Shown here in pieces: positions 2,716-50,885 of a stretch of DNA of 64,000 nt. The notes under the pieces were generated by a model, which saw nothing but the letters and a program-made list of their open reading frames with translations, ran no database searches and was not told the origin of the DNA. This DNA comes from Nitrospirota bacterium (GTDB lineage Bacteria > Nitrospirota > UBA9217). Numbering within the stretch: the first letter of the stretch is position 1; every line of letters starts with the position of its first letter. The stretch spans positions 4,930 through 68,929 of the forward strand of contig DASPQB010000253.1 of assembly GCA_035625205.1 (NCBI GenBank), given 5' to 3'. The translations under genes were made by a program, and so were the position numbers.

Positions 2716-3123
2716 TTATCCTTTCCAGGTACGGAGAGAATTCACAACTTTCAGCTTCAGCTCAGGTGTAAACTCTGAGATGCCATGTGCCTCGCGCGCA
2801 TGAACAGCTACGCCGTCTATGATCAGATCCTCGGTTTGTGCTATGTACCTGAACCCACAATTCATTCCCAGATCTTTGCACTTAAACTCTTTGAGAACGG
2901 GCTCCTTGTCTTCCGACGGAAATTCTACGTTCTGGCCCTTGGCAAAGGTCTGCTTTATTTTGCCCACCATATCCTGGTTCAAATCAGCCACCCCGTGCAC
3001 ATCACGCAGATGTATCGCGACCACATCCGTCAACAGTTCTTCGGTCCGAGCAACATGCTTCCATCCACAATTATATCCCAAGCTCCTGCAGGCAAACTCT
3101 CTCATGACAGACCTCCTCACCAT
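2716..3123 (-). CDS. Tandem DUF1059-like small protein (two ~55-aa repeats)
   Basis: Two internal repeats: MREFACRSLGYNCGWKHVARTEELLTDVVAIHLRDVHGV and KEFKCKDLGMNCGFRYIAQTEDLIIDGVAVHAREAHGI. Pattern C-x-x-G-x-x-C-G ... H-x-x-x-x-HG resembles DUF1059. The true start may be the internal Met at MREF. Confidence 0.5.
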   Translation of the reverse strand: MVRRSVMREFACRSLGYNCGWKHVARTEELLTDVVAIHLRDVHGVADLNQDMVGKIKQTFAKGQNVEFPSEDKEPVLKEFKCKDLGMNCGFRYIAQTEDLIIDGVAVHAREAHGISEFTPELKLKVVNSLRTWKG

Positions 3124-3252
3124 AGTTTAGTATTAAAACCGTTTTTCGTATTCTTTCCTTAAATATAGCACCGGAGCAACGCATCTGCAGAAAAGGCCGT
3201 AGATTGTCGGAGGGAATAAAAAAAGAGGAAGGGATAGGGACATGCGCGCATC

Positions 3253-3285
3253 AAAAAACGCCGGCCCCTATCCAGGAAGCCGGCG
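3253..3285 (-). terminator. Rho-independent terminator downstream of ccsA
   Basis: Minus-strand reading: CGCCGGC-ttcctggatagg-GGCCGGCG stem followed by TTTTTT, ~50 nt past the ccsA stop. Confidence 0.5.
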
Positions 3286-3332
3286 TTGTGATCACACATA
3301 ACCAATTATCGGAAATAATCTCTTTTGCTCTA

Positions 3333-4628
3333 TTAATTCATTCCTCCGTAGGAGTGCAGACCGGACAGAACGAGGTTGACCCCGAGGTATGTGAAAATGA
3401 CCGCCAAAAAACCGACTGAGGAAATAACGGCCATCTGGGTGCCTTTCCAACCCCGAACATATCTGGAGTGAAGATAAATGGCGTAAACGAACCACGTAAT
3501 GAGCGACCAGGTCTCCTTGGGATCCCAACTCCAGTAGGTGCCCCAGGCGCTGTTGGCCCAGACCGCTCCGGTAATGATTCCTGCAGTGAGGAGCGGCCAT
3601 CCGATCGCTATCATGCGGTAGGTAACATCATCAAGCTGGCTCTGCACAGGGAGGTAGGGCTTCAGCAGACCCCTGAGTCCCAAACCCTTGGACCAAATAA
3701 AATAAAAGAGTGCCAGGACCGCCAGCCAGCTGATGAGCATGACGCCCGTGTTCGAATTTAAAAAGGTAGCTTCGAACATGTGCTTTTTAAATGACTCGCC
3801 TGCTGCCAGATTTTTAAAGGATATCAAATAGACAAAATCGATCCCCATGGCCACCAGCAGAACGATCGCCAGGGTCACACAGAACGACCAGAACAGGAAA
3901 ACCTGCGGCTTGTTCCTGGAGCCCGCCACAATCAGGAAGATAAACCAGGCAAGGGTCAAGACTCCCAGTCCCATCCAGAAGGCTGTCTTCATTCGGTCTC
4001 CCTGGCTTGCCATGAGATAGCCGATCGGGGCAAGTACCACGATAGCCGCAAGTGCTAAGTACAGGTTCGACCGAGAGCCCCTTTCCTCAATGTCCATTAA
4101 CAGGTATACCATGCTTATGGCAAATGCAACGCCGAAGGCCGCGTAGCCGAGGAAACTCACAAGGACGTGATAGAACAGCCAGTTGCTCTTAAGCGCCGGT
4201 ACCAAGGGCGTGATATCGGAGCTGATGCCGGCCACATTGATGAATGCAAGGGAGAGGAACGCGACGGGCATCACAAAAGCGCCGAACGCCTTTGTCTTAT
4301 ATTTGAATTCCACTACAAGATAGATTAATACGGTACTCCACGTGAAGAACACCAGCGATTCATAAAGATTGGACAGCGGTATCCTGCCGATGTCCATCTG
4401 GTAGGACTCGCGCCACCGGAGCAGCAAGGCTGCGGTCTGCACTAAAAACCCGAAAACCGTCACGATCGTGGCTGCCTGGCCGATACCGTTTTTTCGGAAG
4501 GCAAGGTAGCCGAAGTACAGCACCATCGCGACGAGATATGCCAGTGTTGCTATACTAAAAAGTAATGAACTGTTCATTGAATCCTCCTGAATAACACTTG
4601 AAGCATTTGGAAAATCTCGATCCACCAC
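3333..4628 (-). CDS. ccsA: Cytochrome c biogenesis protein CcsA/ResC (System II haem handling)
   Basis: Polytopic membrane protein with the WWD-type motif WGTYWSWDPKETWSLITW, diagnostic of CcsA/ResC/CcmF-family haem-handling proteins. Located next to resB. Confidence 0.85.
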   Translation of the reverse strand: MVDRDFPNASSVIQEDSMNSSLLFSIATLAYLVAMVLYFGYLAFRKNGIGQAATIVTVFGFLVQTAALLLRWRESYQMDIGRIPLSNLYESLVFFTWSTVLIYLVVEFKYKTKAFGAFVMPVAFLSLAFINVAGISSDITPLVPALKSNWLFYHVLVSFLGYAAFGVAFAISMVYLLMDIEERGSRSNLYLALAAIVVLAPIGYLMASQGDRMKTAFWMGLGVLTLAWFIFLIVAGSRNKPQVFLFWSFCVTLAIVLLVAMGIDFVYLISFKNLAAGESFKKHMFEATFLNSNTGVMLISWLAVLALFYFIWSKGLGLRGLLKPYLPVQSQLDDVTYRMIAIGWPLLTAGIITGAVWANSAWGTYWSWDPKETWSLITWFVYAIYLHSRYVRGWKGTQMAVISSVGFLAVIFTYLGVNLVLSGLHSYGGMN

Positions 4629-4784: not shown

Positions 4785-6296
4785 CTACTTTAATATGTCT
4801 TCTGATATCCTGTTAAATTCTCGTTCAAACCCAATCCTGTTCCGGTTTGCGGAGCCCGCAACAAGAATGGCCGTTTGGCCATTTCGGTTCCGGATACTTA
4901 TCCATAGCTTCCGGTGAGAACCGAAGAATGCAATCGGCGGTCCGATGCAAAGCATAATGAATCCTATATAGACTACCCAAACTCCCGGATCCTTCGTGAC
5001 CTGGAGACCGGTGTAACGGGCCCCCACGAAGCCACGGTAACTGATCACATAATCCTCGGGCATATAGGGTTCCACAGAATCCGTTTTGAGGATGGTGGTA
5101 CGGTAAAGCTCCTTATTTCCTCGGTATACCTCGAGTTCCACGGCGGGGTTTATGAACTCCTGTCTTTCCGCGTTGAAATACTGTACCTGACCGGTGGAAG
5201 GACTTCTCATAGCGAAGGGCTCAAATGAGAGGACCTTGATCGTCCTGTCGATGGACGGAATATGGAGCGAGGCACCGGGGTCTATCACGACCGTCTCCCC
5301 GCCCGTCCGGTTGTCGTTTTTCTTGCGGATGTTTAACACGACCTTCCCGCGGCTCATCTGAGTCACCCCGTAGCTCGACTGATAGAAGGTTATCCCATGA
5401 AAGGTAAGAGGGTCGTTCACCCTGATCCGCTTGTCCAAGATCTTTTGGCCGTTAAGGTCGAAAATACTGAGCGTGCTATGATATTCCGAGGGCATGCCGG
5501 TCGGCATCCCCGATTGACTCATATAGTAATCGACATCGAAATTGTCGCACCGGACATAGTAACCGAGTGGCATGGCGGGAACACCTACTTGGGGATCATG
5601 GATTACCGGGCTCTCGGCAATGCCAAGCGCGGCTATGATCTGGTCCCACATTGGTTCGTTTCTGAGGTAGACCACCTGGGACGCAGATCCTTCCGGAAGG
5701 TTCAAGAACGCCTTGAACCCAAAGAACGAGCCGATAAGAGCTCCCGTAAAGATGAGAAGGATGCTCACGTGGGTAATATATACACCAAAACGGCTAAACA
5801 CCCCTTTCTGCGAGATGTACTGCGTACCGTTCGACCCTTTGGACTCCACAAAACGAAATCCCCGCGCTTTGAGCACGGCAGCAGCCTTCTCCTCGGCCTT
5901 ACCCATATCGGCCTTCAGTTGAATCTCTTTCTTGAACGGTACAGCTTTCAAGCTGTCTTCATCGATCGGTTTAAGCGGTGCTCTGGCAAGTTTCCATGTG
6001 TGTGGGAACCGCTCGAGCGTACAGATCGTAAGATTTGCCGTAAACAGAAAGAGGAGCAGAATGAACCACCATGTGTGGTACATATCGAAGAATCCCAAGG
6101 CCTCGAAGAGCTGAACCGTGCTCTGACTGTATTCCCGGAGATAGCGTTCCGGGGCCTCGTTCTGCTGGATGACGGTCCCGATGACCGACACGATCGCCAA
6201 AATGATCAGCAACACCACTGCAAGTTTTACGGACGAAAAGAATTTCCAAACCTTTTCGGCGGCGATTTCTACAATCCCTTTTTGATTTTCCAACAC
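4785..6296 (-). CDS. resB: Cytochrome c biogenesis protein ResB/Ccs1
   Basis: 503 aa. N-terminal TM helices (VKLAVVLLIILAIVSVIGTVI), a large soluble domain and a C-terminal TM helix. Classic resB-ccsA gene pair. Confidence 0.75.
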   Translation of the reverse strand: MLENQKGIVEIAAEKVWKFFSSVKLAVVLLIILAIVSVIGTVIQQNEAPERYLREYSQSTVQLFEALGFFDMYHTWWFILLLFLFTANLTICTLERFPHTWKLARAPLKPIDEDSLKAVPFKKEIQLKADMGKAEEKAAAVLKARGFRFVESKGSNGTQYISQKGVFSRFGVYITHVSILLIFTGALIGSFFGFKAFLNLPEGSASQVVYLRNEPMWDQIIAALGIAESPVIHDPQVGVPAMPLGYYVRCDNFDVDYYMSQSGMPTGMPSEYHSTLSIFDLNGQKILDKRIRVNDPLTFHGITFYQSSYGVTQMSRGKVVLNIRKKNDNRTGGETVVIDPGASLHIPSIDRTIKVLSFEPFAMRSPSTGQVQYFNAERQEFINPAVELEVYRGNKELYRTTILKTDSVEPYMPEDYVISYRGFVGARYTGLQVTKDPGVWVVYIGFIMLCIGPPIAFFGSHRKLWISIRNRNGQTAILVAGSANRNRIGFEREFNRISEDILK

Positions 6297-21705: not shown

Positions 21706-21921
21706 AGTTTTTTATACCTGCGAACATCCCGAGAGCCTCTTTTTCACTTCTCGAGGTTCCCGTAACTGGTTCCAAACTCTCAAAAAATAAAAAACCGTAT
21801 CCGGTCAGGATACGGCTCGAAAGGTCTTTGGTAATAAAATGCTCGCCTTCCCTACGCCGGCACTACCCGGATCAGGTTCTAAGGGTCGTCCTTTCGGGAC
21901 TCTCAGCCTCTTGGCTCCCCC
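21706..21921 (-). promoter_or_regulatory. TPP (THI-box) riboswitch with intrinsic-terminator expression platform, leader of thiSGEC
   Basis: Minus-strand aptamer GGGGGAGCC..GGCTGAGAGTCCC..ACCCTTAGAACCTGATCCGGGTAGTGCCGGCGTAGGGAAGG matches the THI-element consensus (CUGAGA, ACCUGAUC, GGCGUAGGGA). Followed by hairpin CCGTATCC-tgac-CGGATACGG plus a U-run (~21786-21815) before the thiS start. Confidence 0.8.
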
Positions 21922-22898
21922 AGCATACTATAGGTTAACAATACGGCAAGATAGGCATAAAGTCAATTATTTTCTCAAATCATACACGTATGCTTTTCAG
22001 TATTGCGGCAGATGAAATTGCAGGTGCCGTTTATGCTTGTTTCCTTAATCATTTAATTTGCGAGGGCACCTTGCAACAGAGCTGTTCCGAATCTACCTCC
22101 TCGTACATTCCATGATCGGCGAGACATCAGATTTCCCTGCCTTCGCCAAACGTACAACCGCCGGCACAGCGCGAGAACCGTGCTTTTTTCTCGTATCCGG
22201 ATAGCTGTTGGGCGCTCATTTCCCATTCCGTCATACCGTAAAATTTGCCTGCGCTGAAGCGTAATTTGAACTATAGGGACACTGAAACAACGCTGCCGCA
22301 TCAGTGGTCCTAGCCATAGATCAGACACGTGTCTTGCCGAGATCGTCGAGCACCATACCGGCCACAACCGAGCTCAGCTCGTACCGATTGTCTTTGGGAT
22401 ATGCACGCTCTGCGATGATCCTGCCGTTTTCTCCTTGAAGGAGAGCGCACGGTGACGAGATACGCTGGAACAAAATCGGTAAACAGACGCGACGATGGTC
22501 GAACATTATCTCCTCGATCACGCCCCTCGAACAACGGGAAGCAAACGGGGTTCTGACCTGCGACCCGGCGAGTTCCTCGCCGAAAAGGTTTTGGAGCGAC
22601 TTCTATGGCGAAGTACAAAATATTTACGTTGCTAGCCCACTATACGGACAAATATATTCAAAGTATTGTTGAAGAAAATATGATAACGGCATGTTCACCA
22701 CCCAAAATGGTTTGTCTCATTTTTGGTCATGCGTGATAGTAAAAAATGTTAGTTGACTTTCATGATGCTTTTGCATTAATATTCGCAAAATATCATTCTT
22801 TGTAATTCCATCCATGATTCCACTTCCGTTCTTTGCCAAACGATTTAGATAAAGGTCATTACGATAAACTCATCACATTCAACCAAGGAGGGTTTAAA

Positions 22899-32534: not shown

Positions 32535-32610
32535 TGGAGCGGGCGACGGGTCTCGAACCCGCGACCCCAAGCTTGGGAAGCTTGTACTCTACCAGCTGAG
32601 CTACGCCCGC
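32535..32610 (-). tRNA. tRNA-Gly (anticodon CCC)
   Basis: Minus-strand sequence GCGGGCGTAGCTCAGCTGGTAGAGTACAAGCTTCCCAAGCTTGGGGTCGCGGGTTCGAGACCCGTCGCCCGCTCCA. Perfect 7-bp acceptor stem, D arm, anticodon stem CAAGC/GCTTG with loop TTCCCAA, T arm GTTCGAGAC, encoded CCA. Confidence 0.85.
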
Positions 32611-48413: not shown

Positions 48414-48803
48414 CTACTTCCCCTCTTCTTCTTTCAGGAACTTTTCGTACTCCGACTTGCTCATCAAGTCGTTCAATTCGGAAGTATCGCTCATTTCAAG
48501 CACAACGAGCCAGCCATTTCCGTAGGGGTCTTCGTTTATGATCTCTGGCGAGTCGGCGAGGTCCTCGTTCACCTCCACCACTGTGCCCGACACCGGACTA
48601 ACGACAGGCGAAGTCGCTTTCGTAGACTCGACTTCGGAAAGCTCAGAGTCTGCATCGATTTCCGTGTCTGTTTCTGGAAGATCGATATAAACAATATCAC
48701 CCATCTGCTGTTGGGCATAGTCGGTAATGCCGATTGTTGCCCGCTTTCCTTCCGCCCGAACCCAAGCATGCTCTCTGTGATATTTTATATCATCGGGATT
48801 CAT
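48414..48803 (-). CDS. gcvH: Glycine cleavage system H protein (lipoyl carrier)
   Basis: 129 aa with lipoyl-lysine motif SELSEVESTKATSPVVSPVSG and HAWV motif. Confidence 0.9.
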   Translation of the reverse strand: MNPDDIKYHREHAWVRAEGKRATIGITDYAQQQMGDIVYIDLPETDTEIDADSELSEVESTKATSPVVSPVSGTVVEVNEDLADSPEIINEDPYGNGWLVVLEMSDTSELNDLMSKSEYEKFLKEEEGK

Positions 48804-48845
48804 GGATACCTACCTCCAAATTGGAACGTGAAGAGAATGAGTCTG

Positions 48846-48874
48846 TTTTTAGCCCATGCGCGCTATTTTGTCAA
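48846..48874 (-). promoter_or_regulatory. Putative sigma70 promoter for gcvH
   Basis: Minus strand TTGACA - 17 nt - TAAAAA ~45 nt upstream of the gcvH ATG. A perfect extended -10 TGTTATAAT also occurs further upstream (48940-48948, minus strand). Confidence 0.3.
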
Positions 48875-49668
48875 GCAAAAAAATGTCGTCATTCATCGGC
48901 TTGCTGCAGAGAAGAACTTTCACGAGGGAAGATTAAAATATTATAACACAGCAACAGGCAAGAGAGAACGCTCAGGGATGTCATAGCTCATGTTGACGTA
49001 CTCCCAACGCTAAAGAACGTAGGGCTACCCACGCCATTTCCCTAAACGTAAATCGGGATAGGGGGGAGCCTCTCGGCTCCTCCCCTCCCACACCGTGCGT
49101 ACGGCTGCGTACACGGCAGTTCGGCTGGTTAAGCGAACGCTTCTCGCCTCGCTTTGGGTAGGCAGTGTTTCGCAAGCGTTTCGGTCCTTGTCGGTGTCCC
49201 TCGGGGCTTCACCCCTACCTTCACCGTGAACAGCTATACTGGATTTTCTGCCGCATTACGTTGGCAGTTTCATCCTACATGCAACTCCAACCGTTTGGGC
49301 CTTCGCCCCGCCACGGGACTATGATGCCCTCTGCGGACTTCTGCGCCACGGTCAGGAAACCTCACGGCTCCCTCAGTCTCGATTCCGGGACATGACGCAG
49401 ATCTCCCGAGGTAAATTCGACCGCCTTCCGCGCACAACCGCTGGATTTACGCCCTGCGCCTTTGATGGATGTCGACATCGCGATCATTTGCCCGCTCGTG
49501 GGGCACTCACGCCTCATAGCCGGTTTTTGTTCATCGGCTCGCGCGTTTGCTCCACGCTTCTTTCAGACCCCGCGTCTCGATGAAGCCCTTGCGCTTCGCT
49601 AACCCTTCGCCTCCATCAGGCTGGGTAGCGGACTCGCACCTCCAAACTGTCGAACATGCTCGGCACAC

Positions 49669-49697
49669 AAAAAAAGGGATGCGTTTCTTCGCATCCC
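49669..49697 (-). terminator. Rho-independent terminator of the rnf operon
   Basis: Minus strand: GGGATGCG-aagaaa-CGCATCCC followed by TTTTTTT, 30 nt after the rnfB stop. Confidence 0.7.
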
Positions 49698-49727
49698 CTT
49701 CACTTCACAAATGTCATTACGATAGTG

Positions 49728-50885
49728 CTATACTGCAACCGATTCCTCTGTTTTTGATTTTTTCTGCACGGTTGCGGAAGCAGCTTCCACCATGGTTATC
49801 GCTTTTTTCGGGCAGCGGGACTCGCACATCCTGCAGCCAATGCACTTCTCCTGGTTGACGACATGCAACGAACGGATTTCGCCGGAGATAGCGTTAACGG
49901 GGCAGACCTTCTCACACACATCGATGCCTACGCACTTCGCAGGATCGATATATGCTTTCGGCCGGGGGATATAATCGAAGATCGCATGCGTGGGACATTT
50001 CTTGACGCAAAGACCGCAGCTGATGCACTTGCTCTGGTCGATGCGCGCAAGATTGTTGTCGATCTTAATGGCATCCACCGGGCAGGTCCTGACGCAGATT
50101 CCGCAGGCGATGCAGCCGACCTGGCACTTTTTCTTGACGTCAACACCCTTGTCCCTGCTGTGGCAGCTGATGATCACAGCCTTAGAGGTCTGGGCAAGTT
50201 CGATGACCTGCTTAGGGCAGGCGGCTACGCACTTTCCGCAGGCCGTACACTTATCGGGATTTATAATCGGCAGGTTGTCGGCACTCATCGTGATCGCATC
50301 AAAAGGACAAGCCCGCATGCAGGTCCCGAATCCCAGGCATCCGTACTCACAGGATTTATCTCCACCAGCAGCCAGTACCGCCGCAGTGCAGTCCTGCACG
50401 CCGGTATAGATAAACCTCCTCTGGCTGAGCGACGCTCCACCCTGGCAGAAGACACGGGCAATCTTAGGCTCGAATTTTTCCGCTTTTTTACCCGTGATTT
50501 CGGCGATCTTTTCGGCGACTGCTGATTTACCAGGAGCGCACATGCTCACTGCTACGTCGGGATTGCCCACGACTGCCTCGGCGTATCCCATGCAGCCCGC
50601 GAACCCACAGGCCCCGCAGTTTGCGCCGGGCAGGACCTCGCGGACCTGCTCTACTTTTGGATCTACTTTCACCACGAAGCGGGCAGCGACCAGGGCAAGA
50701 GCCACGCCAAACACGATGCCGAGCCCCGCTAGTACGATTAGTGTCACATACACAGTGGACGTAGGGACGGCTCCTGTTGCCTCCGATGAAGCGCCAGCGT
50801 CGATGAGTGGCACAAGCTTGTTCGTAATCGTAAATAGTGAGTGGGAGAAGACCTGCATCAGAATATGCATAAATTGTTCATACAT
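49728..50885 (-). CDS. rnfB: Rnf complex subunit B with extended poly-ferredoxin domain
   Basis: N-terminal TM helix plus the PGANCGACGFAGC motif typical of RnfB, then at least five additional CxxCxxCxxxCP ferredoxin motifs (385 aa ORF). The true start may be an internal Met. Confidence 0.7.
   Translation of the reverse strand: MYEQFMHILMQVFSHSLFTITNKLVPLIDAGASSEATGAVPTSTVYVTLIVLAGLGIVFGVALALVAARFVVKVDPKVEQVREVLPGANCGACGFAGCMGYAEAVVGNPDVAVSMCAPGKSAVAEKIAEITGKKAEKFEPKIARVFCQGGASLSQRRFIYTGVQDCTAAVLAAGGDKSCEYGCLGFGTCMRACPFDAITMSADNLPIINPDKCTACGKCVAACPKQVIELAQTSKAVIISCHSRDKGVDVKKKCQVGCIACGICVRTCPVDAIKIDNNLARIDQSKCISCGLCVKKCPTHAIFDYIPRPKAYIDPAKCVGIDVCEKVCPVNAISGEIRSLHVVNQEKCIGCRMCESRCPKKAITMVEAASATVQKKSKTEESVAV

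Follow-up and report, generated by a model that had tools for sequence, protein, structure and literature searches.

Described class C and ORF-less group II introns

Group II introns begin with GUGYG and end with AY, and the bulged A of domain VI lies 7–8 nt from the 3′ splice site; domain V is a helix of ~34 nt with the catalytic triad and a 2-nt bulge. The bacterial class C (IIC) is represented by B.h.I1 of Bacillus halodurans, O.i.I1 of Oceanobacillus iheyensis, and GsI-IIC of Geobacillus stearothermophilus. Introns of this class typically sit immediately behind an intrinsic terminator—their usual low-cost niche—or another stem-loop, feature an EBS1–IBS1 pairing of 3–4 bp, and encode an IEP with RT and X/maturase domains and no endonuclease domain.

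The introns of the Thermosynechococcus elongatus family belong to the CL/IIB type and are located in genes. ORF-less introns of this organism depend on the IEP of a related intron in trans (PMC2882425). As Simon et al. (2008) are cited in two reviews (PMC4424553, PMC3245105), ORF-less bacterial introns occur together with related IEP-encoding introns that can act in trans; the same reviews call ORF-less bacterial introns "comparatively rare." C.te.I1 of Clostridium tetani is also ORF-less, and its genome has no IEP (PMC4024640, PMC4424553). This intron lies inside a gene, self-splices robustly, and yields protein isoforms by alternative splicing.

The element described here lies at 49668..49052 on the minus strand of the window, that is, the whole 64-kb stretch of DNA that was analyzed. 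With high confidence in the explanation as a whole, we read it as a group II intron of bacterial class C, hosted by a Nitrospirota genome, that has no ORF and is non-autonomous (Table 1). It belongs to a known kind of selfish element and is a new Nitrospirota example of an ORF-less IIC intron. Like the class C introns named above, it features a small ribozyme (~440 nt without domain IV), a position directly behind an intrinsic terminator hairpin and U-run, and a short EBS1–IBS1 pairing, and the IEPs of its relatives consist of RT and maturase domains only, with the GsI-IIC RT as the nearest protein. Unlike these examples, it has no IEP gene, carries lesions in domain V, and resides in a Nitrospirota MAG. 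It resembles the known trans-dependent ORF-less introns in being an internal-deletion derivative of an RT-encoding intron, and, as in those systems, ORF-less and full-length copies among its relatives share a genome and differ by a single deletion; unlike the T. elongatus introns, it is of class C and located behind a terminator. With C.te.I1, it has in common that it is an ORF-less bacterial group II intron, whereas its own position is between genes, without coding exons that splicing could join, and its sequence looks degraded.

Table 1. Features of the rnfB–gcvH locus under the preferred reading, in window coordinates
Feature	Position	Strand	Basis
ORF-less class C (IIC) group II intron, 617 nt, GUGUG to CCUAUCCCGAU	49052..49668	-	Rfam, collinear ends, empty sites
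Domains I–III (intron nt 1–372; GUGUG at 49664–49668)	49297..49668	-	Rfam D1D4-3 and D1D4-1, alifold
EBS1, AAAU (intron nt 180–183)	49486..49489	-	Fixed-column complementarity to exon end
Domain IV remnant, ~175 nt, ORF-less	49122..49296	-	Alignments to L004, L049, L164
Domain V (CUGCCGUGUACG-CAGC-CGUACGCACGGUG)	49091..49119	-	Alignment of 43 relatives; RF00029
Domain VI, bulged branch-point A at 49059	49055..49089	-	RF00029 alignment
rnfB, 385-aa Fe-S subunit of the Rnf complex	49728..50885	-	ORF; Pfam FeS and Fer4
gcvH, glycine cleavage protein H, 129 aa	48414..48803	-	ORF; Pfam GCV_H
rnfB intrinsic terminator, GAAGGGGAUGCG-AAGAAA-CGCAUCCC and U7	49669..49701	-	Terminator scan
gcvH promoter candidates and near-invariant leader	48804..48948	-	Conserved columns in relatives' alignments
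3′ exon; its initial UU completes the split U-run	49010..49051	-	Alignments to empty sites

The rnfB–gcvH locus and the intron within it

The upstream neighbor of the intron on the same strand is rnfB, whose product has homologs named RnfB / Nitrospirota bacterium. An earlier note, made from the letters of the window, had marked 48990–49668 as a GC-rich, highly self-complementary segment without ORFs between the gcvH promoter and the rnf terminator. Its reading of coding capacity and composition is borne out: no ORF longer than 103 aa overlaps 48990–49668, and the GC content of 49052–49668 is 59.8%, compared with 51.9% on average in the window (sd 3.4%, 617-nt windows), a value reached by 0.16% of 617-nt windows. 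Of its bounds, 49668 is exactly the 5′ end of the intron, whereas 48990 overshoots the 3′ end (49052) by 62 nt. Both hairpins quoted for the self-complementarity exist. GGAGCC-tctc-GGCTCC is present at 49066–49081 and, on the minus strand, forms the distal stem of domain VI; the second, CCGTGCGTACGG..CGTACACGG at 49094–49117, is domain V and is imperfect, contrary to what was claimed, because of the canonical 2-nt bulge of this domain. The fold of the segment as a whole, however, beats shuffles only modestly (z = −2.4), and support for structure comes from covariance models and covariation rather than from the whole-segment fold.

The rnf terminator is real as judged by a terminator scan (49701..49672, minus strand) and the T-run that follows, and the hairpin and T-run are kept in five of five intron-free relatives. 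For the intron, it is at once 5′ exon and target motif, with its last UUU serving as IBS1. The proposed gcvH promoter is plausible, since the candidate motifs TGTTATAAT (48940–48948, extended −10-like) and TTGACA (48870–48875) are conserved in relatives, although a strict σ70 scan of 48700–49800 called no promoter; all of these motifs lie downstream of the intron. Across six loci, the ~100 nt leading up to the gcvH start are near-invariant despite a 10–12% divergence in RnfB, and could be a conserved leader or an operator. Neither a glycine riboswitch nor any other Rfam family was found in this leader (E ≤ 1), with only weak matches at chance level. Elsewhere in the window, Rfam at the gathering threshold identifies a TPP riboswitch (21831–21931, minus strand, 69 bits) and a tRNA (32538–32610, minus strand, 65 bits).

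The Rfam search of both strands that the earlier note had proposed returned group II intron matches on the minus strand. RF02001 (group-II-D1D4-3) matches 49584–49415 over the full length of the model at 94 bits (E 3e-19, gathering score 32), RF01998 (group-II-D1D4-1) matches 49375–49298 at 43.2 bits (gathering score 35), and RF00029 (Intron_gpII, domains V–VI) matches 49121–49052 at 30 bits, which is below its gathering score of 40. The 5′ terminus GUGUG directly follows the U7 of the terminator. The 3′ terminus is ...CCCGAU, and the end of the intron reads ...GGGAGGGGAGGAGCCGAGAGGCUCCCCCCUAUCCCGAU. This is domain VI with its bulged A, placed 7 nt from the 3′ splice site, and relatives share the motif as ...CCCCUAUCCCGAU. 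Both termini are collinear with at least 40 relatives, and self-BLAST of the intron against the 64-kb window gave no second copy.

Covariation, also proposed as a check, is extensive. The RNAalifold consensus of domains I–III, built from 75 non-redundant relatives among the matches listed, contains 106 pairs. Compensatory double changes occur at 67 of these, and 96.6% of the cells are canonical. Domain V covaries across relatives as well (for example, CCGU/ACGG, CCGG/CCGG, and CCCA/UGGG). The EBS1 column pairs with 3.2 of the last four exon nucleotides on average over 75 copies, compared with 2.09 ± 0.08 in 1000 shuffles, and this EBS1–IBS1 covariation also fixes the 5′ boundary of the intron. 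In the window copy, EBS1 stands opposite UUUU and forms a 3-bp AAA–UUU pairing with IBS1.

Homologous loci, the third check, were positive for a group II intron as well. Besides the intron-bearing relatives, five loci with RnfB 88–90% identical (L005, L006, L008, L215, and L216) are empty sites: They have the order rnfB–terminator–gcvH and a spacer of ~260 nt, with no intron. Alignment to these sites places the insertion point inside the T-run of the terminator, which is split into 7 T before and 2 T after the intron. Its absence from the loci of five relatives marks the element as a recent insertion specific to this lineage rather than a host RNA under conservation. Together with the Rfam matches and the covariation, the empty sites decide among the options of the earlier note in favor of the decayed mobile intron, here a group II intron on the minus strand. 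Its two other options, a large ncRNA and a regulatory platform, amount to a structured RNA selected by the host to serve gcvH or rnf, possibly a domesticated intron. The strongly structured element does share its strand with the two operons that flank it, and outward promoters can occur in IIC introns of other systems (PMC3001079), which was counted for this alternative. We nevertheless judge it very improbable: The element is missing in the five close relatives, whose gcvH promoter region and leader are near-invariant; far from being better conserved than its mobile relatives, it has degraded further than they have; and it has the conserved gcvH promoter candidates downstream. One part of the insertion site differs from a plain interruption: The ~33–42 nt directly 3′ of the intron (UUACGUUUAGGGAAAUGGCGUGGGUAGCCCUAC...; ~49010–49051) have no equivalent at any of the five empty sites, nor a match in the rest of the window or in ~200 fetched loci. 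This stretch can fold into a hairpin (ΔG −14.8 kcal/mol), and simple retrohoming does not explain its origin.

The class C assignment rests on placement behind a hairpin and T-run, on the homology of the IEP of a relative, and on the short EBS1–IBS1 covariation. A scan for the 5′ pattern with one genome per species gave at least 120 loci in many phyla. Among the matches listed, 119 relatives, nearly all of the copies, lie directly behind a GC-rich hairpin and T-run at unrelated loci, and the 45 nt upstream have a median ΔG of −21.6 kcal/mol; the subclade occurs mostly in Acidobacteriota, Proteobacteria, Latescibacterota, and Nitrospirota. BLASTN against plasmids retrieved introns of ~1.9 kb in Rhizobium, Sinorhizobium, Burkholderia, and others. 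The intron of Burkholderia cenocepacia (L004) measures 1864 nt with ltrA inside, and the window copy is collinear with it at nt 1–473 and 545–617. Full-length relatives of ~1.85–1.95 kb are also found in Nitrospirota MAGs (L049 and L089/L126). L049 is the closest full-length relative among the matches listed, with 85% identity over domains I–III, and encodes a 457-aa RT/maturase. The IEP of this relative was examined because the window copy has none: It consists of RVT_1 and GIIM domains only, and its best solved homologs are the GsI-IIC RT (7e-150) and IIC maturases (7uim, a IIC RNP, 2e-103; 5hhj), far ahead of LtrA of class IIA (2e-37) and of 6me0, which we take to be the maturase/RT of the T.el4h IIB intron. 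Two variations within the group are worth recording. A related class C copy on Sinorhizobium fredii plasmid pSF83666a (L003) is apparently split by an IS21-family element, with the intron 5′ part at 3001–3344, istB at 4854–5654, and ltrA resuming at 5815. L138 (nt ~345–430), L172, and L019 have an additional structured segment of ~80 nt inserted into domain III (…GUUCACUCGAU…GAAAGGGGAGAAACGG…), which is absent from the window copy and most relatives.

Loss of the reverse transcriptase ORF and the ORF-less relatives

In full-length relatives, the IEP ORF starts at about intron nt 407–420 and ends 9–20 nt before domain V. The window copy aligns with the full-length introns L004, L049, and L164 at both ends, with one gap of ~1.24–1.3 kb in the middle. 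It has kept the first ~110 nt of the IEP ORF including the DIVa hairpin, and the last ~10 nt. The dead IEP start is AUGCGGCAG at 49248–49256, and AUGCGGCAGAAAAUCCAG now runs into an early stop; the DIVa hairpin GGGGUGAAGCCCC is retained at 49203–49215 and is followed by ~60 nt more. The deletion junction, as located with the help of L138, L164, and further pairs of ORF-less and full-length copies, lies within 49129–49148. Past the junction, the copy reads ...GUUCGCUUAA with the former stop codon (in CGCUUAA, 49129–49135), then CCAGCCGAAC, and then domain V. The largest ORF of the window copy (103 aa) is unrelated to RT, and tblastn with the L049 IEP found no significant RT similarity in the intron and no RT gene in the 64-kb window or in the 81-kb ENA metagenome contig to which the window belongs.

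These remnants bear on an alternative origin of the segment, as what is left of an ordinary protein gene after frameshifting—raised in the earlier note as an outcome that would overturn its proposal—or as a piece of another mobile element such as an IS or a prophage fragment. The missing long ORF and the foreign GC content fit such an origin, but only ~120 nt inside domain IV are related to a protein, and these are the two ends of the RT gene of the intron itself; tblastn with the IEP gives nothing significant, and the ribozyme domains account for the whole length. An origin from a protein gene, IS, or prophage, to which we give practically no credence, is refuted by the matches to covariance models and by collinearity with group II introns from end to end.

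The intron reading extends to other ORF-less copies in the subclade. A survey was made with an nhmmer profile of domains V–VI and restricted to copies followed by at least 2400 nt of sequence. Among the matches listed, the 50 assessable genomic copies divide into 21 full-length, 9 ORF-less (620–730 nt), 3 shorter, and 2 odd copies, and 15 5′ fragments without domain V. The 9 of 50 that are ORF-less form a sizeable minority, in contrast with the "comparatively rare" of the reviews. In JGI metagenomes, 10 full-length copies and 1 ORF-less copy occur among 14. In a tree of domains I–III, the ORF-less copies are scattered amid the full-length ones, which indicates that ORF-less derivatives arose repeatedly in the subclade.

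Pairs within one genome display the deletion most clearly. The alphaproteobacterial MAG CBDBIS01 features the ORF-less copies L015 (CBDBIS010000005, 3.16 Mb) and L110 (CBDBIS010000004) and the full-length copies L093 and L095. L015 and L110 are identical, lie at different loci, and are 99.8–100% identical to L093/L095 outside a single deletion of 1309 nt; as judged by their sequences, the four form a clean natural example of what would be trans-mobilization. In Endozoicomonas numazuensis, the ORF-less L009 is 96–99% identical to the full-length L052 and differs by one clean deletion.

L138 (JGI Ga0209212_1037352), a copy from another metagenome, is ORF-less, 91% identical to the window copy in domains I–III, and has the same domain IV across the junction. 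Projected on the full-length L164, both copies have the same 3′ deletion endpoint (nt 1862) and a homologous 5′ endpoint, so the ORF was already gone in their common ancestor. The flanks of L138, which include an FdhD-like gene downstream, are unrelated to those of the window copy, and its domain V is the clade consensus. We infer that this ORF-less lineage moved after the deletion and occupied at least two sites—a statement that holds for the lineage and not for the window copy itself—presumably with an RT supplied in trans. The likeness of the two copies may instead stem from horizontal transfer of a whole locus, against which their unrelated flanks speak.

The 5′ breakpoints of the ORF-less derivatives lie at intron nt 539–553 in three lineages, at the homologous position in the window copy and L138, and at 589 in L009; those of L015, L016, L037, L009, L138, and the window copy (~nt 525–590) all fall within ~15–50 nt of one homologous position. 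They cluster just before the first conserved RT motif (RT0, LMEEV); the distance of the 3′ breakpoints from the end of the intron ranges from 81 to 134 nt. No microhomology was found at the junctions. The clustering could reflect a mechanistic hot spot, such as a template jump of the RT, or strong selection for a complete DIVa module. A broader reading is that ORF-less class C introns are persistent, SINE-like non-autonomous lineages that spread from site to site and from genome to genome by way of the RTs of full-length relatives, and not rare accidents. It is suggested by the share of ORF-less copies (~10–20% of the assessable ones among the matches listed), by the ~9% divergence of the window and L138 lineage since its deletion, and by independent deletions that share a 5′ breakpoint without microhomology; we advance it tentatively, as a possibility that we do not favor.

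State of the window copy and its relation to the host

The clade consensus of domain V consists of CCGCC, a GACC loop, and GGUGGUGU, and 43 of 43 aligned relatives carry CCGCC...GGUGGUGUGGG. The window copy has the helix and the GC bulge of this domain and differs in three respects. The catalytic triad is changed from CGC to UGC (strand CUGCC instead of CCGCC) with the U–G wobble kept; the loop is CAGC instead of GACC; and the 3′ base has gone from GGUGGUGUGGG to GGUGUGGG, a loss of 3 nt that costs the domain one base pair, most of the 3-nt J5/6 linker, or both. At the conserved columns (≥93%) of domains V–VI, the window copy deviates at 4 of 38, where 31 of 43 copies deviate at none. At the equivalent columns of domains I–III, it deviates at 9 of 202 (rank 4 of 43), and 8 of 105 consensus pairs are broken against a median of 3 (rank 6 of 75). 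Its Rfam scores of 94 bits for D1D4-3 and 30 bits for domains V–VI compare with 124–135 and 40.5–46 bits for L138, L015, and L049. A second, independent assembly (L002, Logan SRR7004205) is identical over the part of the intron that it covers, including domain V. The 36-nt domain V variant of the window copy has no match in JGI metagenomes, and there is thus no evidence that the lesion-bearing form ever spread. Because of the private lesions in domain V and the eight broken pairs in domains I–III, the window copy is probably a decaying relic, catalytically weakened and immobile.

An intron that is still active, splicing from read-through transcripts of rnfB and mobilizable by an IEP encoded elsewhere in the genome, would require that the changes in domain V are tolerated. 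The window copy has all six domains along with GUGUG, the bulged A, and the 3′ AU, it keeps the DIVa hairpin, and its 3-bp EBS1–IBS1 pairing is the commonest state of the lineage, with AAAU/UUUU in 16 copies among the matches listed. A U at the first triad position that retains the wobble, together with a shortened J5/6, might be tolerated, and full-length relatives occur in the Nitrospirota MAGs named above. The absence of the variant from JGI metagenomes, the four deviations at conserved domain V–VI columns including the 3-nt deletion, the excess of broken pairs, scores 10–40 bits under those of relatives, and the lack of an IEP in the 64-kb window all weigh against activity, which we therefore regard as rather unlikely.

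In the history that we propose for the relic, a full-length IIC intron would have lost its ORF through one internal deletion, and the resulting mini-intron would have kept a working ribozyme and the protein-binding DIVa hairpin. With both retained, the RT/maturase of a related full-length intron could bind it in trans. The mini-intron would then have reverse-spliced into DNA behind terminator stem-loops and been copied into DNA, its target recognized by the terminator hairpin and the 3-bp EBS1(AAA)–IBS1(UUU) pairing. After insertion, private mutations would have gathered in the catalytic core of domain V and in the helices of domains I–III—a decay in situ of a copy no longer in need of function.

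The intron interrupts no gene: The rnfB terminator precedes it, and the gcvH leader and promoter candidates follow it. It is transcribed only via read-through of the rnfB terminator, which, together with its place upstream of the gcvH promoter, makes it near-neutral for the host. It shows no sign of a regulatory role and is not a regulatory ncRNA. For annotation, this means that a structured non-coding block of 0.6 kb in a compact Nitrospirota genome is a selfish element and not a new regulatory RNA, and that intron finders based on the RT would miss such an ORF-less copy. As a modest lead, the survey suggests that ORF-less derivatives are commoner in this subclade than "comparatively rare" and can persist as lineages.
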